The notes under the pieces were generated by a model. It did no database searches, was not told where the DNA came from, and saw only the letters and a list, made by a program, of their open reading frames with translations. A program made the translations under genes and the position numbers. Shown piece after piece: positions 25,832-54,300 of a DNA stretch of 64,000 nucleotides; within the stretch, counting starts at the first letter, position 1, and each line of letters begins with the position of its first letter. This DNA is from Takakia lepidozioides. Lineage: Eukaryota > Plantae > Bryophyta. The stretch lies in contig CM060731.1 of assembly GCA_030704615.1 (NCBI GenBank), positions 40,610,001 to 40,674,000 of the forward strand. The letters run 5' to 3'.

Positions 25832-28462
25832 TGTCGTGCACCTAAGCATCGTGCCACAACATACATCGTTGTCCACCACACAATCTAAGCACACAATCAT
25901 AGAAAGTTATGCCACAATCGCCCCCCTAGCTGGTGATTAGGTCCCTCTAACACCGGATAGCTGACAAGTATCCATCTCAATAAGATCATCGCTTGGTCTT
26001 CAATTGCACAAGTCCCAACACCTGAAGTCGATAGATCAAGAGGCCGGGTGCAAACGTAGCCCCATCGTTAGTCGCCTTCATGCAATCCATGATCTTCAGT
26101 TGAGTATCCATGGCATTGAAGCCCCACTAGCTAGACCTTGGATCACTTGTCCGCCTCACCATTGTCATGCCCACTACCTCTGTCCAAGGCACCGTGGACA
26201 CAACCATTCTCCGATAGGGACCTCCTCAAGTGGCGGTGTCAAGCATCCCATGTGCCACCCCCTTGAGCATTTGTCACACCCCAACATGGTTGCGGCGCCA
26301 CCAGCATGCCCACATAGCATGCAATGCAACCCTGCAGGTACCACTGCAAGGTTGGGATCTATCATCCCATCCACATGTGGAAGGTGACATGGCGTACAAT
26401 TGCGCACATGGTCCTTCCATACCATGTCATCTCAACCTTCCAGAATCAACACTCCTGAAGGCAACACCTCCCTGACCCTTAAAATCACACGTCCTGCTGT
26501 GACATCCAAGGTCGTAGGCGCTGTCTGTTGAAGATACACATAGTCCCCAGGTGGAAACGCCGAACACTTGGCCGATATCCCCCTCCACGTATAGTGGCGT
26601 ACCTCAATGTGTCTCGGTGTTGGGCAATAGCAAGGTTCTCAAAAGCCATAGGTATGACTTCTTGGAACAACTCTGCCCGCTGGGCACAAGTTTGTATCCA
26701 CACATCTGGATCATCAAGGTTGAGAACTATTGCAGCCTCCCTACGAATAGATGCAGGCAAATCCGGCTCTCGGCCGAAGAGAAGAAAGTAAGGTGAGAAG
26801 GAGGCAAGTGAAGCTTGTTTGCTGAACCTATAGCCCATAACTAGCCAAGGCAGTTGAAGGTCCCAATCTCCTAGGTGTCCCTTCTGCAAACCGTACTTGC
26901 GCAAACCTCTCTTGACTGTCTGAGCAACTCTCTCCGCCAAGCCATCAGCCTCGAGATGATCCCGAGATCTATCAAGGCTTGCTCACACAAAGCCTGAAAC
27001 TCCCCCAAGAATTCTCTCCCCCGGTCCGTGAGTACCTCGGCTGGAGCACCAAAATGGCTAAGCACTCGATCTAAGAATGCATACGCAGCCCCCTCACTTG
27101 TCTTGTCAGGCAATGCCACCAGTTCAATCCATTTGGAGAAGTGTTCCACCATCACCAGCACATACTTGTTATGGCAAATCGTCAATGGCAATGGGCCTGC
27201 AAAGTCGAGACTCCAACGATAGCCCAAATCCATAATGGGTAAAGGATGCAATTGTGGAGTAGGGGCGTTGAAAGAAGCCCGCACTCTATCACACACCATG
27301 CACCTTGCCACTAACTGTTGCACATCCGTGTGCATGCCCCGCCACCAATGCTGCCCTTGCAGCAAACTATGAGTGCGCCGCACCCCAAAATATCCCAACT
27401 CCTCACGGGCATGGCGTACCAATCGCGCTCATTATGTTGGATGAGGTACAATCCTCACTCGTCCATCCTCCCATACCCGGAGTAGGTGAGTCCCTTCCCA
27501 CTTGAACCTCTTGGCTTGTTGTAAGATCCGATCTCTCTCCTTAGCAGTCACACTGGCTGTTGTCTCTCATGTACGAAGGTAGGCCAACACTGCTGCATCT
27601 TCATGCACATCCTTAGCACCACCAAGCTCCTCACTGATCTCCGGATCGTCATGCACACCATCTACTTGACCAATGCTATGGGATGGACCAGCTTGAGCTC
27701 CCATTGCTAGGATGCACAAAAAGGCAGATGCGTGCCATCCTGGCACCATCTCCTCATCCGTCTCACCATGCCACCGAGCTCCAGTATCATCATGCTCGCT
27801 CATGCATGGATTACGACTCAACCCATCTGCATCCCAATTGACTATACCGGCTCGATGCACCACCTAGAAGTCGTACTCTTGAAGCATAAGTGCCCACCGT
27901 GCAAGCTTCCATGTAAGCTTGTCTGACTCCATCAACCACTTCAATGGTTGGTGATCCGTGACAAGGGTGAAGAGGTTGCCATAGAGGTAGCATCTAAAAT
28001 GTGTCACTGCCCATACCGCAGCTAGACACTCCCCTTTATATGAGCTTAACTTCGCCTCGGCATCATTGTTCGAGCGGCTGACATATGCCACTACGAACTC
28101 TCTTCCCTCGTCATCCACCTGTGTGAGCACTGCTCCAATTCCCAGCATACTCCAATCCATATGCAGCTGGAAAGGCCGCCTCAGAATAGGTGCAGAAGTC
28201 AATCGAGCCTTGAGTTCCTCAAAGGCTTCCTCCTGTTCCTTCTCCCACTGCCACTCCTGACCCACCTTGGTCAACTTGGTAAGAGCCTTTGCAATGCTGC
28301 TAAATCCCTTGACAAACCATCGATAGTAATTTGCTAACCCCATGAAAGCACGAACTCTTCTAACATCTATGGGGCGTGGAATGCGTGCAATGGCCTCCAC
28401 CTTCGTCTTTTGAATACCCAATCCTCCAGGGTATATCATGTGGCCCAGATACTCAATCTGGT
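25832..28462 (-). mobile_element. DNMT-Gypsy copy B, 3' half (end of RT, RNase H, integrase, PHD finger, PPT, 85-bp terminus)
   Basis: NQIEYLGHMIYPGG continues exactly from KFFHN at 39112. RH LHMDWSMLGIGAVL; INT WSLDFAGPLP...VLTDRGREF...AER; PPT-like ctaggggggcga near 25918-25929; ends ...gtgcacgaca. Confidence 0.9.
26188..26322 (-). other. PHD finger at the integrase C-terminus
   Basis: CMLC-x11-CDKC-x4-HMGC...WLCPRC, the canonical C4HC3 pattern with LTPPLEEVPIGEW. Confidence 0.92.
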
Positions 28463-31400
28463 TGTCAAGTTAAATAAGCACAGTGTGAAAACAGCTAGAA
28501 TAAAACTAGTTATTTGCATTTAACACTTGGATTTAGGTCAAGTGTTAAATCAGATGTCAAGTTTAGTTTGACACCTGGTCCGTCTTATCTTCACGAGAGC
28601 GGCAGTCGCGCGGCTCATCTTTCTCGAGTTGAGCCTGCGCGACCGAGCTCCTTCTTGCGTTTAGAAGCTGTGTGTGCTTATGATGGGAGTGTAGGTTGTT
28701 GTGGGGTGGAGCCCTTATAGCTTGGGGTGCCCCTGGCTCGACTTCTATTTTAAAGAGTGATAGCAATGGATTTCATATTTCTTGTGTTGAGAGTGTGTGT
28801 CCTTTTAGCTTTTGTTTATCACTCGAGAAAGATGCAACTGTATCTAGTTTTCTAGGGCTAAGCTAGATGTTACGTTCCGGTTTTTAAGCACTATTATAAT
28901 ATAGCTTGGTTACGAGAGCTTGCAGGTAGACTGGCTATGTGTGCCTAGTGGAGCATAACAGGAAGGCGGGAACCACTCGAAGTGTCGCTGCAGCAGTTCA
29001 AAGCCAACAATATTCTCGTCCTTCTGGCAGGCACTGCAGCAGGCTGTCTGCCTTGTTCTGATAGCGTGGGGGGCATGTCCTCATCAACAGTTGTACATAG
29101 GGGGCTTCTGCCGCTGCCATGGCTTGTGCTTTTCCCACCTCGGCAGGACTGGAGGATCAGGCTTGACGTAGTAGGAACAAAGCCTCAGGTGCTCTTTCTG
29201 TGCTCTTTCATTGCCAGCCTTTAGTGCACCACCAGCTGCACATACTATCACATGCAGGGAAAACCGACCGTAGCGACCGTAGCTGCCAGGGCCTTGGTGA
29301 ATCCCGCTGCAGGCGAGGATGTTGTGCGGCAGCAGAGGTTGTTGAGTGGTCAGGCCTTGCGAGTGTCGTCCGTGCCCTCCAAGATTGGTGTTGGGGCCCG
29401 TGGATTGGGGTTATCTCTGTTCAACCATGACAAGTGTGCTCCTGTCCCCAAGCTGCCATAGTAGAAGGCTTAGCTATTTTTGCCACTGGGCAATGCCTTG
29501 AGCTTTCAGAATCCTCACCTTGAGTGATCTGGGGACTGGAGACCGGCCATGTCCGCTTGTTTGTCAACGTGAACCCAAATATCTTGCAGTCTTGCTCCAC
29601 CTGCGGGCTGGGTGTGCAGACCTGCTGCAGCTCTGGCTGTTTGGGGCAAACACCTACTGACAAAGAGTGTCCTTGCAGACCAAGCAAATCGTTCTCCGTC
29701 TGAGTTTGATTGATGGGCAGTGACCGCTCAGGCATTCCAACCACTTGACAAGATGAAGATGCTGATTCATTTGCTAATGTGAACCAACTAGGTAAAGAAG
29801 CCTGCAAGGAAGGCTGTTGCGGATCCAGTAAACGACTTCCACTGCAATTTGTTGCTTGATGGCTCTGTTACAATGTGACTACTGTAAGAAAGATTCAGAC
29901 CTGCCAGGCAAGCTATGAACGTTGATATCTGCACTACCACAACTCCCTAGGATTAATACAAGTGCCTGGAGTGAAATGGATAGCTGGAGAACTGCTCAGC
30001 CCATACATTTGGAGTTAAGAGTCATATCATCTACATTGAGGGCGGAGGCCAGGCATCGGAAATGGACCCACCTTGTGTGGAAGCTGATCGCAGGCATGAT
30101 GGAGCGTGTGGAGAACAACCGAGTTGCACTCACTGTCAATACTGGTTGGGGTCGACTTGGGTGGTGATCGCAGGCATGATATGAACATGTGGAGGATGAC
30201 AATGCCAGTCAAGCACAGCGCTACACACCAAGCGTGACCAGAGCACATGCTTGCGCCACAATGAAAGTGGCATGATTGATCAAGTTCTGTTGACAACCAA
30301 CGCTGAGGACTGCGGTTTGTGAAGATCAGGGTTAGGTCAATCCGAATACCTCAAATAGGAGATGCCCCCATTCCGCTGATGCCAAGGACGCGATGATGCC
30401 CTGTGCTGTTGTTGTAAGTCCCGCCATAGCTCTCTCTCTCTCTCTCACGGAAGACTGCTGCTGTGGAGTGCGCTCGGAAATGGGGCAGTAGTGTGCTCAC
30501 AGTGCGAGGGGAACGGCCTCGGGAACCCGTAGGTAACCAGGGAACAGGAACCAAGACAAGTATTTTTAAAAAAAAAAAAAAAAAAAAATCGTTCTTTGAT
30601 CTAATTTAAATTAGATAGAGCCTGTTTGCCATAACTTTGGCCTACCAAGGCCGTTGGACCCAAACTTGCGCAGGACCTACAGAAAAGGGAAATCTACCTA
30701 TCTAAACCTGGTTTCTGTTTTTGGGACTCTGCTAAAAATCTATGGAATTTTTAGAGTGTGAGTGTGCTAAGAAAGATCCACGATCCTATCTCTAGAACCT
30801 GTGTTGGTCTATATGAGAGACAAATTTGTGGATGTACTCCTTGCATGGCTGGGGGAAATGAGGACGTAATTGAAGGGCAGGATTCTTCTCTTAGCCTGTG
30901 CACACAAGGGGACAAGATTTATGTTTCCCAAGGAACTCAGACTGATTTGAGTGGAGAACAGTTGGACGATTTGATTGCATACTGGGAGTCAGGCATTAGC
31001 AGTAGACAACAGACTGCTGTAGTTGGCATTGAGGGCCTCAATATCGCCTTGGACAGTCAGAACTCTGTTGGAGCCAGCAGTTCTGCAGCTGTAGGTGAAA
31101 TACCAAAGTGGGTGAAAGCTAGGCTTGGAACACAGCCAAAGACAGCCCCGGGGACCAAGGTGTTCAGCCACAAGGTCGTGGTGTACTGGAGCAGAGGAGC
31201 AGGAGCTACACAAGTTTGTGCAATCAGACATGGTGGCAACCGGATACGCTCTGCACAGGGCAACCACGAGCGGGTTCATCAGCAATGACATGTTTGTTGT
31301 GCGTGAAGGAGATGCACTCATTCGCAATGAGGACACCCGCACCCGTCTCAAACTTTCGAGTTGAGAGACTTCAGACCCCCCTCTGTTTTCTTTAGTATTC

Positions 31401-34400
31401 AGTGAGCGGGAGATAGGGGAGTATTGCTTTGTCTCTACCTGGCAGAAAGAGGAGGAGGGTTGGTTAGAGCGAGCTACTGTAGCTTGGGACAAGGTAGTGG
31501 CAGGTTTCTGGACATAGATATACCTCCTACACCTTACCATCATGCAGAGCGAGGCACTTTGAGAGAAGTCTGGCATTTGATAGCATAGATCAGGATTAGA
31601 TCTTGCTTGGTTCTATTCTTCCCCTCCATCTCTGTACTATTTTCATTACCATGTACTTGTAGTTGCCAAAGCCTCTCTTGGTGGGGGCCAGTCAGTCCGG
31701 GGTTTTGGGCTGGGATATTCTGCAGGATCAGCATTGCAGCTGGATTTTTGGTGTGGGGGTGTTGATGTTTTGATTTCTTGTGTTTGGATCCCCCCCCAAC
31801 ACCTGCATGCTTGACTGTGCGCCATGTTGGTTTTGTGTGGGCGCTTGCTTTCATAGGGATTAGGCCGGATTTGATCACCGGTCAATCCTAGAGTATGCTG
31901 TCGGTGGTGAGGCTGGAGTGATGACCAGCAAGACCACCAGTGTTTCTTCTATGGTGAGCTGGGTTGATGACCAGCCAACCATAGAGTTCTTGCGGTGATG
32001 CAGGTGCAGGTGCCCTGAGCCATTGGGATATGACCCTTAGACTGCAACAGGTGCCCACCCGTGTCACTATTAGATTAGTACTAGAGCCTTATAGTGTCAC
32101 GTGGAGGAGGTGCACATTGTGAGTGTCATTACGGAGTTATCCAAGGGTTTTGAGGGAGTACGGCTACAGGCAGTAACAGTGAGAGTGGGTTCACAAGACG
32201 AGGTATTCGGTTCAGACCACCTTCACCGCCACCCTCAATTACTGTAGAGTCAGACACAGACTCGAGGCTTCATCAACAGGTGTGCACTTTCATTCGCCAT
32301 TGTTGTGGGAGACATGGAGGAGATGTATGGAGCTACCAAGGGCCTCGTAGGTACTCTGGAGCTGTGGGCACAATCGAGTTGGATGACTTTATCCAGGAGT
32401 TCGAGCTGGTGTGATTTGGCAGCAGATGCGCAATCCACAGCTATTCACCCCATTCATGGCGTGGAAGGGATTGTTCCAGCATTTGGAAGGCCCGCCTATG
32501 GACGATTACCACGAGTTCAGGCGAGGACATGAAGCAGAGATTGAGGAGTGGAGGATGTATTGGTCACCTGACTACGTCTCCATTACTTGAGGCACGACGC
32601 GACCAGTAGCTGCATCAGTACCAATAGCTCCCACTGCCAGCACTAGTAGTGGAGCAAGTAGTGCTGGTACTTCTGTAGGTGGTACCAGTTCAAAAGGTGC
32701 TACTACTCCTCCTGCCACGACTACAACGCATGTGCCTAGATTCAACCCGGTGGTGAAGTTCTTCCAGGAGTTGCGGAGGAACTACCAAGGTATACGGACA
32801 GAGAAGCTGCGAAGTTTGCAAGACTTCCAGCGCAAACCCAGTGAGAGCCTGCCGCGAGAGGCGTACACTCGTATGAGGCGGCGCTTGATAGGTGTGACCC
32901 AAGGGATTACTGAAGCTCAGGCAATCCAGTTTGGTATGGAATTCTGGACAAGGAGCTCAAGAGAAGGGTGCGATGCAGATGCAACCCTGTTACAAGCAGC
33001 CCCAACCCACATTAGCAGAGTGGGTTTCTGCTGGCTGAGCGGATTGAGCTCAACATGGTGGAGGAGCGAGTTGTTACATTGGATTTGGCAAGGACATGCC
33101 TGCACGGGGCACTGTCAGCCCACAGCACAAGGGACTGCCCAACAGCGTGGTCAGGGGGCAAGGTTTCCCAGCCCAAGTTCCATGGAGCTTACAGGGGACC
33201 TCAGGTGCAGAGGCCCGTGGCATCTTTTGCAGGCCAACAGCAACCAGGGGTGATATGTTGGACATGTGGAGGACCCCATGTCAAGAGAGATTGCCCAGAG
33301 AGTGGCAAAAGGCCGGCACAAAGCACACCTGCACAGTTGCAGTGTGGGCATTGCGGCAAGTATGGGCATGGAGATGCCCAGTGTTATGACTTGCATCCTG
33401 AGTTGCGCCCAGGCCAGTTCCAAGGGAACAATGGTGGCGGGGGCGAGGTGGACCAGCCCAAAGAGGACGAGGTGGTCGGGCACGAGGTGCAGGCCAAGGG
33501 CAACTCCACATGGCAAGGACGCGGAGGTCAGGGTGTTGACCAAGGCATGGCCAATCGGCTTCAGCAGCTAGAGCAGAGGCTCGCTGCCATGGCTATAGCT
33601 CAGGCGATACCGGCTCCCAGGCGGGATGGTCCACCTCCTGCTCCTGAGGGAGGAGATATGGGAGGTATGGGATTCATGTGCGGAGCAGCACTACCACTAG
33701 AGCAGGTGGAGTCTGCTGCAGCCATGACTCGAGGAGCAGCACGAGTTCCTGAGCCACGAGGTGCAGAGGGAGTTGGATCCACAACATGGGGAGGCAAGCC
33801 GTCAGGCAAGGCTGCCTCAGTCATTCACCTTGCGGAGACAGTGTCAACGCCATCCATGGCACCTAGTTCTCGCCCGACTGTTACCGAGGCGGAGGTTACT
33901 ATGCCATTGGGAGAGCTACACGTGCAGCACTGACACCTGCTACCAAGGCTAGTGCAGCCGGTGTGTTATTGGGGCAGCCACCTCTGTGTGTCAAGCCCCA
34001 CTGTTCTCGGCAACCATGATTGCGACGCCGGGGTGAGACCAGCTGCAGTTTTCAGACTAGCAGCAACTTCTGTGAGAGTGGGAGGTCACTTCATCTTCTG
34101 CGGAGTTAGTGGAAGGTGTAGTGGCAGAGGGATCCTCGGATTTGAGGGTCAAGACTGCCACGGCTGCGCCTGGCAAGCTGCAGCTGCCAGGTTGACGAGC
34201 TGCCAGCTAGGCCAGCCTTGAGCGCGCCATGGTGACACCTGGAGTTGTCTTGTTAGACAACCAGGATGCATTTTCACTTTGAGTGGGACCGGCAGGCAAG
34301 AAGTACCGGCCACTGCGGGTCTTGTTGGACTCGGGAGCTCAGCCACTGATGTTGGGCAGAGCTGCTATTGCAGGTTTGGGCTCATGGAGGCGGATATGGA

Positions 34401-37400
34401 GCCTTGTCCTTTCCAGATACAGACATCTCTGGGAGGATCAGAGCAGGCTCGGGGCATGACACGGCATCAGTTGGCCATTAGACTGCAGCCGGATCATCCT
34501 ATCGATGGCTCAGTAATGCGAGCCAAGGCCATTGTGACAGACGCGGTCTCTTACGATGTCCTCATTGGTGGGGCAGTGTTATACCATGGGCTTCACCCTG
34601 GATTTTGGGAGGAGTCAGCATTCTACAGGCCTGGATGGCAGTCAGGGGATGGTCGTCGTGCACAGCTCCCTGTGACATTCATTGGGGGTATTGCGGCTGC
34701 CCAGCGGGGCAAGATGCCAACACTAGCCGCCTTTACAGCTGCAGTTAGTTGGCCTGGAGAGTTGCTGGAAGGCAATGCCCATGCAGAGGATGTGCCACCT
34801 CCAGCAGAGCAGGATGACATGCATGGTATGGCGGAGTTGCCTGCCATGGTTGCTCACACTCCATTGTGGGGTACGAGCAAGGATTTGCAGCAGGTGCTGA
34901 TCGACGGGTGCAACAAGCCTGGGTAAGAGGCTTTTGTTCGTCAGAAGAGGAGAGAGTGCGGGTATTGCACCAGACCACCTCAGTTGTCACCATTGGATAC
35001 CACACCTATTGTGTGGCAGTATCCGGATGAAGGCATTGCCTTCTGGACTTGGCGGATCAGCACGGATTGGCTGCTGTGCTACAGGCAGGTGTGCAAGTAA
35101 GGCGGTTACCTGTATGTGGAGAGGGATGAGACTGCACGACGCGTCTCACTGCGCCATGTTGCTCAGTTGGTAAGCAGTACCCTGACTTGTTGCTGTGTCT
35201 GCAGTTCGTGGATACCAACAAGCCTTGCCAGCAGACATTTCCTGTTGGGGCGCGGATTTGGAGCAGGTTGGCTCCATTGATCTGTAGTGGCAGGTTGGCC
35301 CTGCCAAGGGCATTCATCAGCCGGGCATGGCAATGGATTGCGAGACTCGAGGACGGGTCTGTTTTGGGAGATGGTGCGGGTTTTGCGCCACTTGCAGCTT
35401 CATCAAGCTGTATCTCCAGCATACATCTTGGAGAATGTGCCACTGATGGGTGATTCTCGGGCCAGGGTGATGGCCAGTGTGCATCAAGTCCGGTCGTGGC
35501 TTGGGTCAGTCAGCTGCTGCTGGATGCAGCTGCAGTGGGATCACGGGCTCATCGTCCACGGCTTTGGTGGACTAACTTGATGCCACCCGCACTGCTCAAG
35601 CGTGCATTTGATGGGGTGCAGCGGCCAGCACACCTCACCGTGGATGGCATTTTGGACACAGGGAGGCAGTCTCAACGTGTGAGACACGATGACCGTTCGC
35701 CTTTGGCATGGTCAACAGGGTGGGTCAACCACGAGCAGCATTACCTACACTACTCAGCTTCCCAGGATCCCATGCTTTTCGGGATGGTGGACCTGGCCTC
35801 TGTGGGATGCCAGTTGCAACAGTTAGTGGAGCCTAATGCCGACGACGAGAGCGGGCTATGGGATTTTCCACTGGGACCACGGCGGTGCCTTCTCTTTCTG
35901 AGGCATCACGTCGTCAGGTGTTGGGGCAAGCAATGGATCTCAATTGCTTGACCTGGATTATCAGCTTGGCTATGGCTGAGCAACGTAGAGTGCGGAGTGC
36001 ACTTCCCTTGATGGTCTCTCTGCCTACCGAGACGGTACAGGCAGCGAGTGGGGGCGAGCCGGTGAGGACCACGGGGTGTAGACATCCATGGCACACGTGG
36101 GAGGTGCTCGAGGTTCAGAGGGAGTTGGCAGCCAAGGCAGCTGTGATGGATGAGGTTGGGGATTCTTCTCGGGATGAGGAGGTTCTCAATGATGAGATGA
36201 TGGGCAGGATGAGGCCTTGTCATTGACTGAGCAGGAAGGGGAGGTACTGCAAAAGGTTGCAGCATAGCAACCACGGGACGCGTCCTCTACCTCTAAGCCC
36301 ACTGGACTTAAGGTTGCAGTTACGGAGGACAATTGGGAGCCTGACATTGGACCCATTGTCACCGGAGGAGAGAGACGACGTATACGGCGGTTCCTGAGGG
36401 CTTACAGGAATTGCTTTGCCTTCAGTTTGAAGGACTTGGGAGCACTGAAGGGTCAAGAGATCCGTATTGAGTTGGCACTGACACGCCAATCTTTCGGAGA
36501 CCCTATAGATACAGTGACATGGAGAGGTCTTTGATTCAGATGAGGACTCAAGATCTCTGGGAGGCAGGTTTGGTGGAGCTCTCTGGTGGAGAGTATGCTT
36601 CAGCCACAGTGATGCCAGCCAAGAAGGATGTCTATGGCAATTGGACGGAGAGACGTATGTGCGGTGATTACCGGCTGTAAATCGTCAGACCAAGTCCGAT
36701 AGGTATGCCATGCCGACACCAGAGGAGATCTTTGATGCCATTGGGCATTCCAAGGTCTTTAGCACGTTGATTTACGATCCGGATATCACCAGTTGCCGAT
36801 CAAGGAGGCGGAGGCGGATAAACAAAAGACGGCATTCTAGGGGATCAATGAGCACGGGAAGGATTGCCTATACCAGTGGCGGTTCTTACCATTTGGGCTT
36901 AAAAACGCTCCCGCTGAGTTTCAAAGAGTCATGGACAGGATTCTAGCAGGGGTGGAGTTTGCTCGGTGCTACATAGATGACATCATCATCTTTAGTGCTA
37001 CGGTGGAGGAGCATGAGAGACACCTTCAGGGGGTATTTGAGCGCTTGAGGGCGCACGGATTGAAGTTACATCCGGGCAAGTGCAAGTTTTTCCACAACCA
37101 GATTGAGTATCTGGGTCACATGATATCCTGGAGGATTGGGGGTACAGCAGACTAAGGTAGAGTCCATTGCACAGGTTCCACGCCCCACGGATGTGAGCCG
37201 AGTTCGAGCTTTCATGGGGTTAGCAAACTATTACAGACGGTTTGTTAAGGGATTTAGTGCCATTGCAAAGGCTCTAACCAAGCTGACCAAGGTGGACCAG
37301 GAGTGGCAGTGGGAAGATGAGCAAGAACAAGCTTTTCAAGAGCTCAAGGCGAGGTTGACCTCGGCGCCCATCTTGAGACGACCTATCAGGGGGCGTCCTT

Positions 37401-39107
37401 TTCAGCTGCATACAGATTGGAGCATGCTGGGGCTTGGAGCGGTGCTCACACAGGTGGATGATGAGGGAAGAGAGTTCGTAGTGGCTTATGCTAGCCGCTC
37501 GAACAATGCTGCAGAGTCTAAGTATAGCTCATATGAGGGAGAATGCTTAGCTGCAGTGTGGGCCGTGGCACACTTCAGGTGCTATCTATACGGCAATCTC
37601 TTCACCCTTGTCACGGATCACCAACCACTCAAGTGGTTGATGGAGTCAGACAAGCTTACGGGGAAGCTTGCACGGTGGGCACTCATCCTTCAAGAGTATG
37701 ACTTTCAGGTGGTGCATCGACCGGGTTTGGTCAATCGCAATGCAGATGGGTTGAGTCGCAATCCATGCACGAGCCAACAGGATGACACTGGAGCTCGGTG
37801 GCATGGTGAGACGGACGAGGAGATGGTGCCCGGATGGCATGCATCTGCATTTCTGTGTATCTTGGCAGCGGAAGGCCAGGTTGGACCTGCAACAGGGATG
37901 ACTGTAGATCAAGTGTCTGAGGACCCTGAGGCCAGCAATGAGCAAGGTGGCGTCAAAGATATACATGAGGATTCAGTTGTGTTGGACTACCTCCGCACTG
38001 GAGACACGGCAGCCACTGTGACTGCCAAGGAGAGGGATCGGATCCTACAACGAGCCAAGAGGTTCAAGTGGGAGGGGACACCTGCTCCGAGTGTGGGAGG
38101 ATGGTCAAGTGAGGATTGTGCCTCACCCAACACAGCGGGCACGGTTAGTGCGCCATGCCCATGAGGAGTTGGGGCATTTTGGGGTGCGACGCACTCATAG
38201 TCTACTGCAGGGGCAGTATTGGTGGCGTGGTATGCACACAGAGGTGCAACAATTTGTGGCTAGGTGCATGGTGTGTGACAGGTGCGTGCTTCATTCAACG
38301 CCCTACTCCACAATTGCACCCTCTTCCGATCATGGGATTGGGCTACAGGTGGAGTCTTGACTTCGCAGGGCCATTGCCACTGACCATGCGCCACAACAAG
38401 TACGTGTTGGTGATGGTGGAGCACTTCTCCAAGTGGATTGAATTGGTTCCATTGCCTGATAAGGCTAGTGAGGGAGCTGCGTATGCATTCTTGGATTGTG
38501 TGCTTAGCCGATTCGGTGCTCCAGCTGAGGTACTCACGGACCAAGGGAGAGAGTTCTTGGGGGTTTCAGGCTTTGGTGACAAGGCCTTGATAGACCACCG
38601 CACCACTTCTCGGGATCATCTGAGGCCGATGGCTTGGCAGAGAGTTGTTCAGATAGTAAAGAGGGGTTTGCGCAAGTATGGCTTGCAGAAGGGACACCTA
38701 GGAGATTGGGACCTTCAGTTACCCTGGTTTAGCCATGGGCTACAGGTTCAGCAAGCAAGCATCACTCGCCTCCTTCTCACCATACTTTCTTCTCTTTGGC
38801 CGAGAGCCGGATTTGCCTACATCCATTCGCAGAGAAGCTGCTACAGTTCTTAACCTTGACGATCCGGACGTGTGGGCACGTGCATGTGAGCAGCGTGCAG
38901 AGTTGTTCAAGAGAGTCATGCCCATGGCTTTCGAGAACCTTGCCATTGCACAACACCGTGATACGTTGAGGTATGCTACCATACGTGGTGGGGGCTATCG
39001 TCCTGGGGTTCGGAGATTCAACCCTGGCAGACTACTTTATTGTGCATATATGTGTGGTGTGGTTTGGACAGCGATGTAGTTGTGTAGCGATATGTATGCG
39101 CACGACA
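28463..39107 (+). mobile_element. DNMT-Gypsy copy A (10.6 kb): long 5' region, gag, PR, DNMT, RT, RH, INT truncated before the PHD; nested in copy B
   Basis: TGTC...GACA ends flanked by TGGT (28459-28462 and 39108-39111). Gag knuckles CWTCGGPHVKRDC and CGHCGKYGHGDAQC; PR VLLDSGAQP ~34319; RT YIDD ~36970; RH LHTDWS; INT HEELGHFG...CMVC and SLDFAGP. Many frameshifts. Confidence 0.9.
35020..35960 (+). pseudogene. C5 cytosine DNA methyltransferase domain (DNMT3-like) in copy A, frameshifted as assembled
   Basis: AGWPCQGHS (PCQ 35299-35307), YILENVP (ENV 35431-35439, same frame), RAHRPRLWWTNL, MGFSTGTT, RRQVLGQAMDL. Confidence 0.9.
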
Positions 39108-40319
39108 TGGTTGTGGAAGAACTTGCACTTCCCAGGGTGCAATTTCAACCCGTGCGCTCTCAAGCGCTCAAACACCACCTGAAGGTGTCTCTCATGCTCC
39201 TCAACCATAGCACTAAAGATGATGATGTCATCAATGTAGCACCGGGCGAAGTCTAGCCCCGCGAGAATCCTATCCATGACCCTCTAAAACTCTGCAGGAG
39301 TATTCTTCAGCCCAAACGGTAAGAACCGCCATTGGTACAAGCAATCCTTCCCATGTTGGTCAATCCCCCAGAATGCCGTCTTTTGCTTGTCAGCCTCTTT
39401 GATTGGCAACTGGTGGTAACCGGATTGCAAGTCAAATGTGCTAAACACCTTTGCATGCCCAATGGCATCAAAGATCTCCTCTGGAGTTGGCATGGCGTAT
39501 CTATCAGACTTAGTCTGACGGTTCACAGGACGATAGTCCCCACATATCCTTTTTTTTGTCCAATTGCCATAGATATACTTCTTAGCTGGCATCACCGTTG
39601 CCGAGGCATACTCCCCGCCTGACAACTCCTCCAATCCAGCTTCGAACAACTTCATAGTCCGTGACTGGATCAATGACCTCTCCATGTCACTATATCGGTA
39701 GGGCCTTCGAAAGATTGGCGTGTCACTTGCCAAATCAATACGAATCTCCTGACCCTTCAAACTCCCCAAATCCTTCAAACCGAAGGCAAAGCAATTTCTA
39801 TAAGCCCTTAGAAATCGCTGGATCCTCTGTCTCTCTCCTCCGGTGACTGTAGGTCCAACATCTGGTTCCCAATTGTCCTCAGTGACTGCACCCTTGGGTA
39901 CACCAGGCTTGGAGGTAGGAGACGAATCCTTTGGTTGCTAGATAGCAACCTCTTGGGCCTTGTCCGCCCAATCTGACTGTGGCGTAGCCTCCACTTGCTC
40001 CGCCATAGCCACTTTGAGAACATCTTCTGAGCAAGAAACATTCTCAACCTCTTCAAAAAGATTGGCCACCTTTGCCTCTATTTGATCCTCAGTGTATGGC
40101 TCTCCCCACTCCTCATATTGCTGCTTGAGAGATCCAAGGACTCTCTCTTTGCGCATCTCATCCCACATCTGCCATGGGTGTTTACAACCCACACTGTGCT
40201 CGCCCCCACTCACTGCCTCAACCGTCCCGGTTGGCAGGGAGGATGCACCATCCAATGGGAGTGTAGAAGTAGCCATCAATGCTTGCAATCTCCGTTGCTC
40301 AGCCATGCACAAGCCAATT

Positions 40320-41255
40320 ATCCATGTCAAGCAATTTAGATCCATTGCCTGACCCAACACCTAGCGTCATGATGCCTCTGACAGAGCTGGCACAGCTGTA
40401 GTGCCCGTGGCAAAACCCATTGCCCGCTCGCACTCATCCGCATTGGGCTCCACCAATTGTTGTAGCACACTGTCCCAAATCAACCCAGGACCATTGTCTC
40501 GAAAAGAGGGAAAAGCTCATGAGCATAGGCAAGGCTGTACGTGGCTGCCCCACTCGATTGACCACTACTAGAGGTGGACGGTCATCATGTCGCACCCTCT
40601 GTGGTTGCCTCCCTTGGTCCAAAATGCCCTCAACCGTGAGATTGGGTGGCCGTTGAACGGAATCATATGCTCTCTTGAGTAGCTCTGGTGGTGCAAGATT
40701 GGTCCACCACAATCGAGGTTGATGCGCGCGTGATCCCACCGCTGCTGCATCCAATAACACCGCCGATCCAATCCAAGACCGCACCTGATGCACACTGGCC
40801 ATTACCTTGGCCCGAGAATCCCCCATAAGAGGAACATTCTCCAAGATATAGCCTAGAGGTTGCACTTGCCTCGTCTGCAAGTCCCGCAACACTCGCAACA
40901 TCTCCCAAAACAAATGCGATCGTGCATCATGCAAGCCATTCCCATGACCTGCGGGAGAGTGTCCTTGGCAAGGCCATCCAGCTATCACCAAGTCAATGGC
41001 ACCATGCCGGTCCAAATCATCCGCCCCCAGCAATGTAATGTTTGCTGGCAAGGCTTTTTGATGCCCTTGAATTGCTGAGAGAGGCAACAACTCAGGATAC
41101 CGGTGTGTGAGCAAGGCGATGTGGCGCATAGAAATACGCCAAGCTATCTCATCCTTCTCCACATACAAGTACTTGCATACTTTAATCCTTGCTTGCAACA
41201 CTCCTGCAAGCCCAGTGTTCATGCCTCTAAACAGGTCTAGCAAACAAATCCCTGA
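40320..41255 (-). pseudogene. C5 cytosine DNA methyltransferase domain (DNMT3-like) in copy B
   Basis: Motif I GICLLDLFRGMNTG, II YVEKD, IV IDLVIAGWPCQGHS (40973-40965), VI YILENVP (40841-40833), VIII AHQPRLWWTNL, X LGQAMDL. In frame with the protease C-terminal half; stops and a frameshift near the 3' end. Confidence 0.93.
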
Positions 41256-44200
41256 GTCAGGTGGTTGCCATGTAATGGGCACTGTATCCAAAGGAGCTAA
41301 CTGAGGAGGTCCATGTGATGTCACTGAACTCCCCTCACTCACCAATGGATAGGCCTCCTGCCATGCTTGGTGCACACACTCGCCTACTACTCGATGCAAA
41401 TTCCCAACTGTACCCCACAGTGGAATATGAACAGGTACATGAGGAAGCAAATCAGCCTTGTATGCCAATTGTTTGTCCTCATCAGGTGGTGGCCTATCAT
41501 CTGCATGGCTATTGCCCTCCAAGAGCTCACCACCCCAAGCCACCACCCCTGAGAATGCAGCCAATGTGGGCATCATGTTCCTATGATCCACCGCTACATT
41601 CCCAATAAACCGCATTGGGAGCAGTGCACGTCGACCATCCCCTGACTGCCATTCCGGCCTGTAGGATGCCGTTTCCTCCCAAAAGTCCAAAGTAAAGCCA
41701 ATCGGGTATAATACAGCCCCACCAACAAGCACATCATAAGACATCGCGTCCGTAACAATGGCTTTAGCTCTCATGACAGAGCCATCTGTAGGATGATCTG
41801 GCTGCAATCAAATGAAGAGCTCATGGCGTGTAATCCCTCGTGCCTTCTCTGAACCGCCCAAAGATGTTTGAATTTGGAAAGGGCAAGGCTCCAAATCCGC
41901 CTTTGTAAGGCCCAAGCCTGCAATTGCTACTCTCCCCAACATCAATGGCTGTGCTCCCAAGTCCAACAAGACCCACAGTGGCCTATACCTCCTCCTGGCT
42001 GGGCCACCCAACTGAAACACACCATCCTGATTGTCCACCGGGACTACCCCAGGAGTCACCATACTACGCTCAATGGCTGGTCTAGCTGGCAATTCTTGCA
42101 ACCTTGCAGCTGCCGCTTGCCATGGCGCAGCTGTGGCTGTCTTCACCCTTGAATCCAGGGCATCCATGTACTGCACCTGATCCGCTATCCCCGCAGATAG
42201 TGCCGATGCATCACCACTCTCACAGAGTGCAGCTGCCAGTCTAAACACTGCAGCTGGCCGCATCCCCGGCATTGCAATTGTCGTGGCAGAAAACAATGGA
42301 GCTTGGCAAATTGCCGTAGCCGCCCCCAACAATGTACTGGCTGCACCTTGCTTTGCAATACCACCCACTGGCATTTCCCGAGCCATACCAACTCTGCCCA
42401 GTGGTACTCGTGGCTCTACCTCTTGCACACTTGGGCGAACAGGTGCCATCGATGGCATAGTTGGCACTGTCTCAGCCAATGTTAAATACTGTGGAAGCCT
42501 TGTCTGCCGACTTGTTTCTCCTCTTTGTGGATCAAAATCCACATCCGCTCCTCTTGGCTCAGGAGCACGCGTTACTGCTCGAGTGACAGCAGTTGCAGAG
42601 TCCACATGCAATGGTCCTACAAGTGTGGCTCCACACATGAAGCCCATACCAATCTGGTCTTCCCTAGGCATAGGAGGTTGTGCAGGTGGGGCTTGAACCT
42701 CAAGCCTTGGAGCTGGCGCAACATGAGTAGTGGCCATGGTAGCAAGACGTTGCTCTAGCTGGGCAAGCCTATCTACCATGCCTTGGTCATGACCTTGACC
42801 GTGACCCTGTGCTCCTTGGTTTTGGTTACGACCTCCACCACGACCTCTGCCTCCTCTACCTCTCTGGACTACATTGCCTCGTCCTCGGCCATCATTGTTC
42901 CCTTGGAACTGGCCTGGTCGTAGCTCAGGATGCAAGTCATAACAATGGGCCTCTTCATGCCCATACTTACCACAATGCCCACACTGTAGTTGTGTAGGCT
43001 GTGCCTGTGCTGGCCTTTTGCCTCTCTCCGGGCAATCTCTCTTAACATGGGGTCCTCCACAATCCCAACATGTCACTCCCGACTGTTGTTGGCTTGAGAA
43101 TGAAGGAAGTGACCTCTGCAATTGAGATCCTCTCTGTCCTTCCCTGGGCTTCGCCTGAGCCCTTTTGTTGCCTTGAGCACGTTGGGGTAGTGGTTGTTGT
43201 TGGCTTGGAGCCCCACTTCGTTGTGTCTCCTTACCAAACCCCACCATGACCACTCGCTCCTCCACCATATTGAGCTCTATCCGCTCTGCCAGCTAAAACA
43301 CGTTTGCTAAGGTGGGTTGGGCCACTTGTAGGAGAGTTGCATCCCACACCCTTCTCCTCAGCTCTTTGTCCAATATCCCATACCAGAATTGGACTGCCTA
43401 AGCTTCTGTAACCCCTTGGGTTACGTTTATCAAGCGTCTCATGCGAGTGTAAGCCTCCCTCAAACTCTCAATAGACCTTCGTTGGAACTCTTGCAAGCTC
43501 CGCAACTTCTGTGTCCTTATCCCTTGGTAGTTTCTCCTTAACTCCTCGAAGAACTCCACAACTGGGTTAAAGACAGGCATGGGTGTTGGTGCTGCAGCAA
43601 GAGCTTGGGTGGACTTCCCAGCTCCTGTTCCACTTGACGTCCCACTGCTGCTTGCAGAAGCTGCCGGTGTAGCTGCCGGTGTCACCACTGCCCTTGTGCC
43701 TCTAGTGATGGAGACATAGTCAGGTGACCAATATACCCGCCATTCCTCAATCTCCACCTCATGTCCCCGCCTAAACTCATGGTAGTCATCCATGGGCGGC
43801 CCCTCAAGGTGCTGAAACAGCCCCTTTCATGCCATAAAAGGCGTAAACAGTTGTGGATTGCGCATCTGCTACAAATCACACCAACTATCAAACTCTTGTA
43901 TGAAGTCATCAAGCTCGATGGTGCCCACAGCTCAGAGTACCTACGTGGCCCCTTGGTAGCTCCATACATCTCCTCCATCGTGTTCCATAACAATGGCACG
44001 GAAATGGCTTGCACCCTCGGCGAGAATCCTCCTAACTCTGAGTCTGAACCTTCTTCAGAAGTCACTAAAGGTGAAGGTGGCCTAAACCGCACACCTCATC
44101 TTGTATACCCACTAGTATCGCTGGTGCTCATATTGGCACTCTCCTCAGCAACTGGTGGCACCTCCGTGATGAAAACTCACAACCAAACCTGTTGTAAACC

Positions 44201-44949
44201 TGTCTCTAATCCCCTTTTCCACAAGGTAACCGGGTAGAGAACATGTTGCGGCCTATGGCTTAGACTACTAGGTTCGTAATATAAACCTGCACCTGCATCC
44301 ACCGCAAGCACTCTTATGGTCTGCTGGTCATCAACCCAGCCTCACCATAAGAGAAACAATGATGGTCTGACTGGTCATCACCCCAGCCTCACCACCGACA
44401 GCACGCTCTAGGATTGGCCGGTGATCAAATCCGGACCAACCTCCTATGAAAACAAATGCCCACACAAAGCTAACATGACGCACAGTCAAGCATGCAGGTG
44501 TGGAAGGGATCCAAACACAAGAAAATCAATACAACAACTCCCCCACACCAAAAACACTCCACAGTGTCGCTCCTGCAATGACATCCCAGCCCAAACCCGG
44601 ACTGACTCTTGCCTCCACCTACGGAAAGGTTTTGGCCTACAGAGAGGGTGGAAGACTACAAGGAAGAGAGACTAAAGCAATTCCTATCACAACATGCTCT
44701 CATCCCACTACCCTATCTCCACACTCTCTTGCTTGAACAATAGACAAGACTACCTTTCAAGGGTCTCTCAAATAACTCTCCAGGAGCCCTCAAGAATATG
44801 TCTCTCAAACAATCTCACTAAGGCTCCCAATCTGTGCACGATGGGACTCCAAAACAGTACACCAAGGCCCCAAGCTTGCCAAAGCTTAGCCCTCGAGGAC
44901 CCCAATAGTCCCTCACACAAGTCGCCAAAGACTCCTCAAGCTCGCCAAA

Positions 44950-49041: not shown

Positions 49042-51356
49042 TGTAGTGTGAAAAGAAGGGGCGTGAATCCCCTTCTGTGCAAGTCTAGTTGTGCTCTTCC
49101 CTAGGTCAATCGGAGGGAAGGAAAGGAGCTCTCCCTCTCAGCTGATCCAACCATCGTCACTCGGTGTGGGTTTCCATCAGGTCCTTCGTGATCAGAGTTC
49201 GCACAATCCTCATCCACGCCGCAGCGGAAGAGAAGACATGGATGGGGAGTCTGTATTGTTTTCACCCGTGGTTCTACTTCTACACGACATCCTTTCCCTG
49301 ATACACTGCACCAGCCATGTTACCATGCGGTCTTCAGTGATGCAACCAGCCCTACGTCAGTGATGACCACTGCCCTTGTGGGCAGCTCTCTTGGTCAACA
49401 ATACGTGGAATCCCCTTTGTAACAAGATCACGATTTGGAAGGCGGCAACGCAGATCTGCCATGAGTTTGCAGGCCCACCAGTTTGGCCCTTCATGGGTTC
49501 ATGCTTTCTTTATTACCTCCCCAATCATCCATTCCTCATCATAACCTCTTGCTGGTCAACTCTCTCCCTTGTGTCCTTTTCTCTCTCCCTCTCTCTTTCT
49601 TTCAGGATAAGTGGGTTCCTCACTCTTTCCACTGTAACATGCCTATGATGCAATGCAATGCGCATTCAGCCAAGCATCCAGTGCACCCAGCATTGAAATC
49701 AACCTTGGTCACACAAGATATAATCAGCCCTTTTATCAGTCCCTCTCTTGCCAATGACAGATGCTTCACACTCCACTTTTCCCAGGTATAACCATTGCCC
49801 AAGACAGCTCTCAACCCTTCTACAGGTCTCAATTTACACACCCTGACAGCTCTCTTTTTCCCATCAGCTGTGAACCTCAGTGGTTCATGGGCTGAGAGCA
49901 CTCTGCAGAATCAGATCCAAACCCAAACAGATGCTGGTTTTTCTGCCCCATCCACATCATCCCTTCTTGTTGTTTCCAAACAGTTCTATCTAACCCTCTC
50001 TGGTTTCCTCTACCTACTAAGCTAGTTCCACATTGGGCAATGTGTCAACATCCCAGGCTAGATTGTTTGTACAAGCTCATGACGTTGAAAAAAGGAACAA
50101 GAATACAACAACAGTAACCATTCTGTCCCAGCAACGAGTCTACCCTGTTTCCATTCATTTTCCTACTGTACAATGTAATAGCAGGTGCATCCATCTCCAG
50201 CCCATCCTGTTTGAAGTCCAGTGTCTTCATTCCATTTACAAAGCTTTTTCTTCCTCACATGTCAGTGTCTCTTACTACATACAAGAGACAGTTCAAACTT
50301 CACAAAGCGATTTCTAAGCAACCAAAAAAAAAGGGGCAACACTCCTCAAACTTATCTGTCTTATACTCCTTGAAGTGGTGGGTCTGCCTGTCAAGAAGGC
50401 ACCTTATCCTCTCCCTCGTCAGCCATCTCCGACGTTTCTTCTTATCGTGATTCCAGTCCTCATTAAGGCATGACGGCTCTGCTTCAGCTGCTGGCACATC
50501 CTTGTGCCTGCCAACCTCTACCCTATCCTTCTACATGTGCATTTCCTCCCTATGAAGTGATCTGGTCCTACAGCCCTTAAGACAGAGAGCAGATACATAA
50601 CTTATTTATAGATAGCTTAAGCGCCATACACACCAGAAGGCGGCACCGCTTCCTCTTGCACAGAAAGCCAAGCCAGATCCCTCAACGTCACTCTTTAAGG
50701 CAAGCTGATTCCCTTACAAAGTGATCTGGTCCTACAGCTCAAAAACAGACAGCAGCTACAAGATTTGATCACTGACAACCTGAGGCGATAATACACACCA
50801 GCCTGCATTTCTCATCCCCCAACACCTGCTGAGCCACTCCATCTCCTCATTAATGTGCTCACAAATACCATGGCGACAGCAGTGGTGCACCGCCCTTATC
50901 ACAAACCCGATCCCTCAGGTTTGATCATTGCTTACGAAGAAGGCGGCACCGCTTCTTCTTGCACAGAAAGCCAAGCAGGAGCTCTTAACATTTCTCTTAA
51001 AAGCAAGCTGATACCCTTTGCGTAGGTGGAACCTTCTCAGATATCCTGTGCTGCCAACACCACTGCAGCAGCTGCGAAAAGATCCACGCACTCTTCCCCT
51101 TCGAATTTCACATCCCGCTTCTAGGGTTCAACATCATGGATGAAAATCATTCATCCTAGGGATGAAAAAGGTGCATGTCATAACTTAGCCATATTTTGTT
51201 CTTGGCAGATAAATAGCATAGTCCTTCCATGGAATTACCTCAAGTTATGGTCAATTCCTCCCCTTCATTAGCACGAAGGGTACTCCCTTTGTAGTAGTGC
51301 CGAAACCTGATGCCAAACACAAACTTGAGATTTTTACTCCCTGCATTCACACTACA
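49042..51356 (-). repeat. 3' LTR of element D
   Basis: Direct repeat of 57924-60239 plus 10 extra terminal bases (tgtagtgtga on the plus strand). Confidence 0.95.
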
Positions 51357-54300
51357 TATGTAGTGTGTCTCCTTTTTTTTAAGTGTCAGGGTCCTCACTG
51401 ACCACCTTTAACGGCTGAACACCTATTGGTGGTATGAAGGGTTTTAAATCCCTCCTACTTCTTACCCATTCCTTGTCTGCTCCATCTCTCAACCTGCATC
51501 TTCGTGCAGCTTCTCCAGTCTTGGTTGTGCTTCCTGCGTCCTTGTATCCCAAAAAGTCATAGGGTCCCTCCCATGGAGATGTCATGGAAGACCTCTTTCC
51601 AGGTCTCAACATCATTACCTTGCTGTTCTCCATCAACGTGCAGTAGTATGCCCTGTTTGATGCCTTCTTTCATAATCTCTTGCCTGTTGACGCTGCCCTT
51701 TCTTCACACTCTTTCGCAGCTTTGCCTTCATCTCTGTGAGAAGCTGGATTTTCTGCTGCATCATAAGTGTGACTTCTGCTACAGATCCATCAGAATTTAC
51801 TGGTGTTGTAAGAAAATGCAACCTGTTGTCAATTCCCAGCCTGGGAATTCTACCAGTAAGTACCTGAAAAGGTGAGAACCCAGTGGAAGCATGGACACCC
51901 ATTCTGTAACCAAACAGGGCCTTATAGAGATTCTGATCCCACTCAGTGTCGTTTCCAACTCCTAGGGTGGTGATGCTCTGTTTGATGGACTTAATGACTC
52001 TTTCCACCATACCGTTACACTGAGGCCAGTAGGGGGCACTATGCTCCCTCTTTATACCGTATTCGTGGCATGTATCTTCAAACTCACCTCCCCACTCTGT
52101 GCCATTGTCAGTGAGCGTATGTGGGCAGCCATACCTGTCAATTACTTCTTCCTCAAGAAAGCGGGCAGCAAGGGCTGCTGTATGATCTGCCACTGGTGCA
52201 GCTTCTATCCATTTTGAGAAGTGATCGATTGCCACCAGAAAGTACTGATTGCCCCTGCTGGTTATAGGTAATGGTCCTGCCGTGTCAATTGCAACTCTGA
52301 AAAACAGATCCACTACTGGAATGCTGTGAAGTTTTGAGCTACCTGAGCGCAACACTCCGTTCTGTTTGGCCATCTGACATTTACCACAGCCCTTGAGTAC
52401 TTGCCTGATGAGTTTTGTTCTATCATGCCAGAAATAACGTCGGCATATCTCCTCTTGTGTTCTTCTGACTCCAAAGTGGCCAGTGGCTTCATGTACTTCA
52501 GTGATTATTGCCCCTCTGTCAGTCTTTGGTGGAACTACCCTTCCATCAAAGTAGACCTCACCTTTGAGATAGGAGTACTGCCTTGCCCGCCTCTTGACTC
52601 TCTTGCTCTCCTCTTTGTCAGGTAGTCATTGACTTCTCCAAAACATAAGAGGTGCATGACCTCCACATCATCAAGCACATCAGGTTGCCTTTCCTCCCTA
52701 ACAGCTGCTGTATGATGGTCAGAGCTGAGTAGAGAGCTTTTCCCACATCTTTCAGCCTCACGTAATAATGACATCTGAGTAGCTTTGGTGGGTGTGGTCC
52801 ATGGTACCCAGTCCGCTTCATCAATCTTGTTGCAAGAAGAAGTGTCTTGTTCTGAACCACTTGTTCCATCACTGTCTGAAGAACAAAACGTCTTGGTGGA
52901 ACACTCACCCCCCATGTTTTTCTTGGCTGGGCATTCTGATGAGGAAGTCACCCGCGTTCTTGTTGTTGGAGTGCTTGTCAAGTGTTGAAGGAATGGTGTC
53001 CCTTGCAAGCTTCCCTTTTCATTGTTCAATCTCTCTTCCACAAGTTCAGGCTGGATGTACCTCGCTCAGCTGCTTATCACGAGCACAAGATCCTCGGGTA
53101 ATCACATGGATGGTGGGACAAGAGGGCATCAGATGCTCCTTTTCCTTGTTGCTGATTGCAGTAGCCTCTATCCTTCCTGCCCTTATCCTTCCAAATACCC
53201 TCCCTCACCAGATTGACAGAGCTTGATTGATCAATACCCTTTCCTTGTTTTTTTTTTGTAGCAAAAGTCTGTGCAGCAAAAGTCACCCTCTTTCCTTCTC
53301 CATCTGGCATTATGCCTGGTTTCAGTTCTCCTTTCAATATGCCATGATCCTTGGTCAACATTCCACCTGTGGAAGATCTTACTATACCCGGAACGAACTC
53401 AAATGAAAAATCACCAAGTAAGTCTATGCCTATGTGGTGCTCTGAGTATAGCCACCAATATGGATCTAGATCTGTTCAAAGAAAAATGACTTCCCAACAG
53501 TATTTCCTTGAAGTGCCAAAGGCCCCATACACATGCATAGTACTCTTCTCTTTTGCAAATCATCTCCCCTTTTTCACTGCTATACCCTACTTGCCTATGA
53601 GCTTCTTCTCTCAACTCCTCCTTCCCCTCCTTAAATTGAAATAATGAAGCATTGATGGCACCCCTATCCCAAGCTAACTTAAGAAGATAGGCTCCATCCC
53701 TCTTTCTCCCTTCTCTTTTCTGACTGTACAGAGAAGTAGAGTATACCTCGATTTCCTCGGTTTCCTCAGCTGGTCCCACTGGATACCTGCTTAGTGCATC
53801 TACGTTAGCATGCCTAGCACCTGCTCTGTGAACAATTTTAAACTCAAAATCTTGTAACATCATGATCCATCTACCCCTGCGTCCATATGCGTCACTTACC
53901 GTTGCCAACCATTCCAGTGGTTTGTGATCAGTCCTGATTACAAAAGGGGTTCCATACAGGTACTGTCGAAAATGTAATACTCCCCACACCAGTGCATAGC
54001 ATTCACCCTCCATAGGGTGATATGCGCTGAGCATCAGATAGTACCTTACTGGCGTATGCAATGACCCTCTCCTTTTTATACTCCTTTTGTGACAAGACTG
54101 CCCCTACTCCTTTGATGGACCAGTCAACATCCAAGACGAACGGTCTTGAGAAATCTGGTCTTGCCAGGATGGGAGCAGTTACCAACTTCACCTGTAAGGT
54201 AGAAAAAGCGTTTTGTGCCTCTGCACTCCAGATAAACTTTACATCCTTCTTGGTTAGAGTGAACAAGGGTACTGCCACTCCAGCATATCCTTTGACATAG

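Follow-up and report, generated by a model that had tools for sequence, protein, structure and literature searches.

Introduction

Among described systems, the closest to the elements considered here is KnitGypsy-Dnmt3 of the alga Klebsormidium nitens, a retrotransposon with its own C5 DNA methyltransferase (DNMT), to which the legend of Fig. 4c in PMC5890265 assigns DIRS-like repeats, defined as A-coding-B-A-B. It has been asked since 2018 why retrotransposons should encode the very enzyme by which they are normally silenced, and the carriers known so far are algae for which few tools exist. In the literature searched, DNMT-carrying elements of this sort are described only from algae, and papers from 2025 and 2026, in their available text, name only "streptophytes", citing the 2018 paper. 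The present analysis concerns a 64,000-nucleotide stretch of the genome of Takakia lepidozioides (Bryophyta; contig CM060731.1), hereafter the window, in whose positions all coordinates are given. It holds two broken Gypsy elements, both of them dead: copy A, an inserted element, is nested within the reverse transcriptase (RT) region of an older outer element, whose 5' half is called copy B. A first-pass annotation made from the letters alone had described them as a Gypsy family with a DNMT3-like enzyme encoded in pol, between protease and RT. Examination of the window copies and their relatives indicates that the DNMT is instead the C-terminal part of the first open reading frame (ORF1; Gag-protease-DNMT), where it is followed by a conserved in-frame stop.

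Position of the methyltransferase in ORF1

The domain does lie between protease and RT, as had been proposed, but it ends ORF1 ahead of the conserved stop and is not inside pol, so that the accompanying idea of an enzyme packaged with Pol finds no support in the form first given. In both window copies, what divides the DNMT from RT is TAG CAA CCA (copy A, 36265..36273, + strand; copy B, 39932..39940, - strand), a stop in CAR-YYA context and in the frame shared with RT. The same arrangement is seen undamaged in the intact relative L038, where a 1369-residue Gag-protease-DNMT protein, the codons TAG CAG TTA, and a 1047-residue RT-RNase H-integrase-PHD protein follow one another in one frame with no other stop. 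Full-length relatives end 97-115 residues beyond motif X of the methyltransferase, and full-length database proteins terminate at the junction-stop site. Among 32 junctions (30 loci and the two window copies), 31 have a stop (TAG in 23, TAA in 8) and none a sense codon; the remaining one, L042, is deleted across the junction. Stops resulting from decay occupy only 77 of 682 glutamine or tryptophan positions.

The codons that follow the stop are nearly always CAR and then CCA, CCC, TCA, or TTA, despite unrelated flanks among about six contexts. CAR-YYA in the strict sense is present in 7 of the 32 rows (both window copies, L019, L031, L037, L038, and L041), and most others have CAA-CCC. According to the available text of PMC2754532 and PMC2194720, CAR-YYA by itself directs readthrough in tobacco mosaic virus (TMV), and, judged from its sequence context, the junction stop is likely a readthrough site of the TMV type. 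Beyond it, the intact ORF2 proteins (n = 2) carry a PHD finger after the integrase and give no chromodomain match.

The methyltransferase domain

In copy B, the domain spans 40280..41260 (-), and an open frame of 457 residues (41807-40434, -) joins the C-terminal half of the protease to motifs I, IV, VI, and VIII, in keeping with the in-frame fusion noted earlier. These motifs read LDLFRG (I, 41240-41223), AGWPCQG (IV, 40982-40962), YILENV (VI, 40850-40833), and RAHQPRLWWT (VIII, 40730-40701), while motifs IX (40429-40412) and X (GQAMDL, 40354-40337) are in another frame, past a frameshift near 40510 and with two stops between. The relic in copy A (35020..36000, +) has motifs IV (35290), VI (35422), VIII (35544), IX (35849), and X (35924) scattered over three frames, and its motif I is destroyed. 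The ordered motifs reported by the first-pass annotation in two diverged copies are found at these positions, with 71% identity between the copies across 4.6 kb; the motif I that it considered readable in copy B can be located but is mutated. Family-wide, motifs I, IV (PC), VI (ENV), VIII (RxR), IX, and X occur in canonical order; relatives have them intact, and neither window copy has an undamaged motif I. The domain is therefore not a DRM, since DRM enzymes are circularly permuted.

The profile PF00145, suggested earlier as a check, matched copy B with 44.6 bits (E 1.6e-11, cut-off 22), whereas no Pfam match came from those frameshifted copy A pieces that were scanned. A profile built from 17 family domains retrieved, among PDB entries, DNMT3A (E 4e-19), DNMT3B (4e-17), DRM (1e-9), and HhaI (4e-6). 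The AlphaFold model of the naturally intact L038 domain (predicted local distance difference test, pLDDT, 93) was compared with solved structures using VIA-align: DNMT3B is the best match (Z 28.8, root-mean-square deviation 2.8, 274 aligned), followed by DNMT3A (Z 27.5, 2.6, 261 aligned), with M.MpeI (Z 25.2), HhaI (23.0), and DNMT1 (19.1) as lower matches. The closest solved sequence and modelled fold are those of DNMT3A/3B, and on these comparisons the family domain is DNMT3-like, as first assigned. A search of the ESM Atlas returned generic PF00145 clusters only, and intact relatives give an Asp_protease_2 match upstream in ORF1.

Retention, selection, and origin of the lineage

Homologues with 50-70% identity are found in Marchantia polymorpha, Calypogeia fissa, and Sphagnum species; M. 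polymorpha has many gene models (e.g., Mp4g09160, Mp5g06330, and MpVg00370), several of its models being of 1278-1281 residues. A metagenome scan anchored on the family protease, with more distant sisters outside its reach, yielded 69 loci. A DNMT match lies downstream of the protease in 54 of them, in 10 the sequence runs out too early beyond it, and five (L056, L057, L063, L064, and L069) are roomy yet without a DNMT match, these being decayed relics that also lack RT. No intact DNMT-less sister element is present among the 69 protease-anchored loci, and scans of viral contigs revealed no relative. For the DNMT, the ratio of nonsynonymous to synonymous substitution rates (dN/dS) stands at 0.12 between copies A and B (dS 1.68), 0.10 for the unsaturated pair L038/L041 (dS 0.26), and 0.10-0.19 for other between-subfamily pairs with finite dS. 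Between subfamilies the domain is under purifying selection, with values that are not near 1, the outcome that the first-pass annotation had named as adverse, and its argument from retention against a one-off capture now extends to the family as a whole. Inside the young Sphagnum-like subfamily the ratio is 0.41-0.87, and RT there displays a similar post-insertion decay.

Contigs of sequencing run X1 (organism A) matched a 5.6-kb stretch of copy B 26,767 times, in all 30 bins and with the DNMT part included, which shows many diverged copies in organism A and is not a copy number. At the motif I change and the three in-frame stops of copy B, at least 99% of the X1 contig depth has another letter, and for this reason the lesions at these sites are private to copy B.

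Of 1.84 billion representatives searched with a profile, 427 matched at E <= 1e-30; among the best 150 of the 427, those with neighbours are Gypsy polyproteins in two layouts. In a DNMT tree of 109 domains (FastTree, midpoint root; known-layout domains only, with about 53 single-domain fragments, host DNMT3, and Klebsormidium left out), all 26 domains in the protease position form one clade with support 0.98, apart from the 83 in the RNase H position. Three of the 26 are Closterium (Zygnematophyceae) proteins (P0186, P0199, and P0293). Proteins of the Closterium clade, namely P0293 and the unnamed P0185 and P0192, continue from DNMT into RT without a stop. No named Klebsormidium sequence is among the matches, 10 of 150 representatives having been checked by name. 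In an RT-RNase H tree with only two outgroups, the bryophyte elements are sister to Haematococcus-type elements (98% ultrafast bootstrap, UFBoot). Since Closterium polyproteins fall within the DNMT clade and the termini agree with the description of KnitGypsy-Dnmt3, the bryophyte elements are most likely an inheritance of the streptophyte lineage already known from Klebsormidium and not a new capture. The simplest reading would be one old streptophyte lineage in which the stop was gained on the way to the bryophyte group. The novelty for land plants suggested at first is, for the same two reasons, smaller than implied, even though the literature searched holds no earlier description.

The polyproteins with a DNMT in the RNase H position (P0181-P0325, P0063, and P0064) have a homologous DNMT between RNase H and integrase, together with a PHD finger; the only named ones are from Haematococcus, and many have GWEC in place of GWPC.

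Layout of the window and terminal repeats

Copy A (28463..39107, +) has TG...CA ends, lies antisense to the outer element in its RT, and is flanked by a 4-bp target-site duplication, TGGT, at 28459..28462 (+; the flank reads ...aatc tggt, then tGTCAAG) and 39108..39111 (+). It begins with terminal repeat A (28463..28821, +; 359 bp, TGTCA...TATCA), which in relatives has the same start motif and 339-362 bp. Its ORF1 relic (32314..36264, +) retains, through many frameshifts, Gag with a CCHC motif (33343-33384, +), the protease LLDSGAQP (34322-34345, +), and the DNMT; the pol relic (36268..39040, +) comprises RT (YIDD 36970), RNase H, and an integrase truncated before its C-terminal part. The 3' end is a remnant of terminal repeat B (39049..39107, +), ending in CACGACA and 78% identical to B of L017. 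Between repeat A and ORF1 there is a 2.8-kb leader (28822-31657, +), in which a poly-A run occurs near 30570 along with ORFs of 177 (+) and 207 (-) residues.

Copy B (39112..44641, -) runs from the leader through Gag, protease, DNMT, and stop into RT as far as the insertion. Its aspartic protease region (41570..42095, -) has LLDLGAQP at 41969-41946, in which the catalytic DSG is mutated, and one in-frame stop. The 3' half of the outer element (25832..28458, -) contains the end of RT, RNase H, integrase, a PHD finger (26323-26189; PF00628, 43.9 bits), a polypurine tract from 25929, and one repeat B ending in CACGACA at 25832. An interpretation of the window as three copies was ruled out, as 25832-28458 is the 3' half of the element to which copy B belongs. 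The 5' end of the outer element did not emerge from scans for a target-site duplication and for a self-priming site run from 44,000 to the end of the window.

Four relatives (L009, L017, L025, and L033) are arranged as A (about 340 bp), internal region, polypurine tract, B (about 113 bp), A, B; copy A begins with repeat A and ends with B, its B-A part being deleted. Target-site duplications of 4 bp occur in copy A, L009, L017, and L025, and the Gag-protease-RT-RNase H-integrase order, TG...CA ends, polypurine tract, and target-site duplication are those of Ty3/Gypsy elements. In distant subfamilies (L009, L033, L037, and L038), the B-A junction reads CACRACA-nn-TGTCA, resembling joined integrase ends; the element looks, from these letters, like a permuted two-repeat circle.

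A self-priming pair is predicted in copy A (28616..28834, +), where 28821-28834 is complementary over 14 nucleotides to 28616-28629 within repeat A, a length reached by 0 of 2000 shuffles. In L038 (16 nucleotides) and in three near-group loci (11-17 nucleotides), the stretch just past repeat A is likewise the complement of a site near the middle of A, with 0-2 of 2000 shuffles each reaching the observed length. Three subfamilies have different priming sequences, which fits self-priming of the Tf1-like kind described for Tcn1 in the available text of PMC6317226, and self-priming at this site is put forward as a prediction.

Among the neighbours, a Gypsy element at 49051-60239, with a broken pol on the minus strand, is a recent insertion, its 2.3-kb long terminal repeats (LTRs; 49051-51356 and 57923-60239) being 99.3% identical. 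A chromovirus-like Gypsy relic (22052-24800, +) has an observed/expected CpG ratio of 0.84, well above its neighbours. Host sequences comprise exons of WDR35/IFT121 (1466-2287, -), a gene of ciliated sperm, and an intron-containing cyclin D (16870-18870, -) with 50-72% identity per exon block to Sphagnum cyclin D, the nearest named match among only 27 candidates; WDR35 and cyclin D together suggest a seed-free land plant. There are also a SWIM zinc-finger ORF (60371-60733, -), a 335-residue frame without a Pfam match (14991-15998, -), and an ORF without a Pfam match (62599-63147, +), which we take to resemble CACTA transposase-associated regions.

Proposed mechanism and alternatives

We lean, if only by a little, toward a role in which the DNMT enters the particle at Gag-like amounts and methylates new cDNA before integration. 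Most ribosomes would halt at the UAG, and a minority would read on and add Pol, readthrough at a low rate giving RT-RNase H-integrase-PHD. Because it precedes the likely leaky stop, on the Gag side, the DNMT is predicted to become incorporated into particles in large amounts, and the protease would free it there. RT would be primed by the 5' end of the element's own RNA, Tf1-style, and de novo methylation of the double-stranded cDNA by the DNMT, probably at CG, would let the copy arrive pre-methylated, with the PHD finger perhaps steering the integrase toward a chromatin state. The lineage most likely descended from streptophyte algae, in which related elements have DNMT and RT within a single ORF. 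This role is supported by the dinoflagellate DNMT3 domains of SymbioDIRS-Dnmt3, which carry out de novo CG methylation in yeast (available text of PMC5890265). The fuller picture combines an unrecognised, ancient green-plant Gypsy clade with split repeats, self-priming, a PHD-tipped integrase, a DNMT3 relocated in bryophytes so as to share the capsid's side of a programmed leaky stop, particles delivering pre-methylated cDNA, and many apparently whole Gag-protease-DNMT genes left unannotated in M. polymorpha; we rate that combination as slightly more doubtful than an even call.

Several observations weigh against the favoured model or its parts. The Klebsormidium Gypsy DNMT produced no methylation in yeast, a result called inconclusive by its authors (available text of PMC5890265). 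CpG depletion, as a sign of self-methylation, is not apparent, with no consistent lowering of the observed/expected ratio in the window elements (0.43-0.51) and four loci (0.27-0.70) relative to the other Gypsy elements of the window (0.33 and 0.84). The most-sampled, Sphagnum-like subfamily has CAA-CCC and then ATG after the stop and not CAR-YYA; because that ATG follows, re-initiation is possible there. Moreover, most of the 30 loci belong to this one subfamily, with re-sequenced duplicates, and the 31 stops amount to about six independent contexts. The gag-pol stop of Tca2 is unexplained by a local readthrough signal (available context in PMC2754532 and PMC2194720), a self-priming complement of at least 10 nucleotides is present in only 12 of 19 near-group loci, and, in the dN/dS estimates, several dS are saturated and the codon filter depresses dN somewhat.

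Of the other explanations, an active DNMT that restrains the element by acting in trans on chromosomal DNA (integrated copies of the element, the insertion site, or rival elements) survives best, although we consider it unlikely. With the domain in ORF1, enzyme would be made well in excess of what a single cDNA requires, self-limitation to the benefit of the host is raised by de Mendoza et al. in the available text of PMC5890265, and moss DNMT3 is described, in sources available in part, as carrying out de novo and CHH methylation; however, fusion to Gag favours particle localisation in established retroelement biology, and the DNMT has no attached chromatin-reading domain, the PHD finger sitting on the integrase. 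Less probable than this is retention of the domain as a nucleic-acid-binding or decoy module of the capsid protein with dispensable catalysis, to which the yeast result for Klebsormidium, the GWEC of many algal relatives, and the lack of a family-specific CpG depletion would all be congenial. In the bryophyte group, nevertheless, conservation is highest in the columns of the S-adenosylmethionine-binding, PC, ENV, and RxR motifs, and the fold model is that of a complete catalytic domain. We give slightly less credit still to the possibility that the architecture stands but Pol arises by re-initiation, splicing, or an internal promoter: the CAA-CCC-ATG of the Sphagnum-like subfamily and the Tca2 precedent, where local readthrough was not detected, would suit it, but no ATG follows the stop in both window copies, L019, L037, L038, and L041, ORF2 is in the frame of ORF1, and CAR-YY is retained across unrelated flanks. 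Last comes the idea that a land-plant retrotransposon acquired a host DNMT3, recently or in a single event, and that the domain has since been drifting. One could invoke for it the DNMT3 genes of non-flowering streptophytes (available text of PMC6453930) and a DNMT tree drawn without host sequences, but it is already largely refuted and scarcely credible given the low between-subfamily dN/dS, an identical DNMT position in liverworts, mosses, and Closterium, the single protease-position clade, and the lack of a DUF3444 match in intact ORF1 proteins, unlike host DNMT3s.

Methylation of cDNA inside the particle, the role that we favour, comes with a quantitative prediction from the conserved stop, that is, DNMT at the level of Gag and RT at a few percent. 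The lineage is abundant in bryophytes, and M. polymorpha can be transformed and has methylomes as well as methylation mutants, which puts self-methylation of cDNA within reach of experiment. Judging from the method in the available text of PMC6317226, A...B-A-B ends would escape LTR finders that require paired terminal LTRs, and ends missed in this way may explain why the lineage is unnamed. The extra DNMT genes of the elements can also confound counts and knock-outs of bryophyte methyltransferases.

Comparison with known systems

No DNMT-carrying retrotransposon of land plants is described in the literature searched, which took in the available text of PMC12344493, PMC5009743, PMC6673714, and PMC10952607 and had subscription journals, Repbase, and theses outside its scope. 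Neither Marchantia nor Sphagnum appears in the peer-review file and Supplementary Data 1 of PMC5890265 (its Supplementary Figures being outside the scope), and the junction stop, PHD, and priming features are absent from the literature searched.

Other retroelements share single features with the family; what follows from cited papers refers to their available text. SymbioDIRS-Dnmt3 and SymbioLINE-Dnmt (PMC5890265) and the EpiLTRs (bioRxiv 10.64898/2026.05.21.726589) also bear a C5 methyltransferase, of DNMT3 type in SymbioDIRS-Dnmt3, but they represent other retroelement classes or another DNMT clade and have non-plant or algal hosts; the EpiLTR enzyme is sister to DNMT4 and lies at the 3' end of pol with DAM and a chromodomain. 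An in-frame UAG with CAR-YYA between polyprotein parts is shared with type I readthrough (UAG-CAR-YYA of TMV; in-frame stops in SIRE1, Tca2, and murine leukaemia virus, MuLV; PMC2754532 and PMC2194720), although the bryophyte stop follows protease and DNMT, both on the abundant side, and one subfamily has CAA-CCC. A PHD finger in the polyprotein is found in Chlamydomonas Gypsy-7a (bioRxiv 10.1101/2022.06.16.496473) and in Haematococcus KAJ9527860.1. The Haematococcus-type proteins also have a homologous DNMT, but between RNase H and integrase and in a single continuous ORF; DNMTs in chlorophyte Gypsy elements are known from the sequence searches of the present analysis and not from the cited papers. 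Tcn1 shares self-priming (PMC6317226), which is only predicted in the bryophyte family, and as a chromovirus it differs by a chromodomain after the integrase, where the two intact ORF2 proteins have PHD. The host PpDNMT3 (PMC6453930) has a DNMT3-type catalytic domain with the canonical motif order, yet it is a cellular gene with a C-terminal DUF3444, whereas the element domain is intronless and part of a mobile polyprotein.

KnitGypsy-Dnmt3 shares the most: Gypsy domains, an unpermuted DNMT3-like domain, a streptophyte host, a DNMT with a nonsynonymous to synonymous ratio (Ka/Ks) below 0.2 to set beside the between-subfamily range found here, and the A-coding-B-A-B arrangement seen in L009, L017, L025, and L033. 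The available text of PMC5890265 does not mention for it the PHD finger, self-priming site, or 4-bp target-site duplication of the bryophyte family. Its host is an alga, and its DNMT is in one ORF with RT and RNase H, whereas the land-plant DNMT ends the Gag-protease ORF1 before the conserved stop. Given this difference in the single-ORF feature, and as the comparison is one of descriptions and not of trees, the bryophyte family is not classed as a member of KnitGypsy-Dnmt3. It is probably the land-plant branch of the Gypsy-DNMT3 elements, set apart by a conserved stop that places the DNMT on the Gag side.

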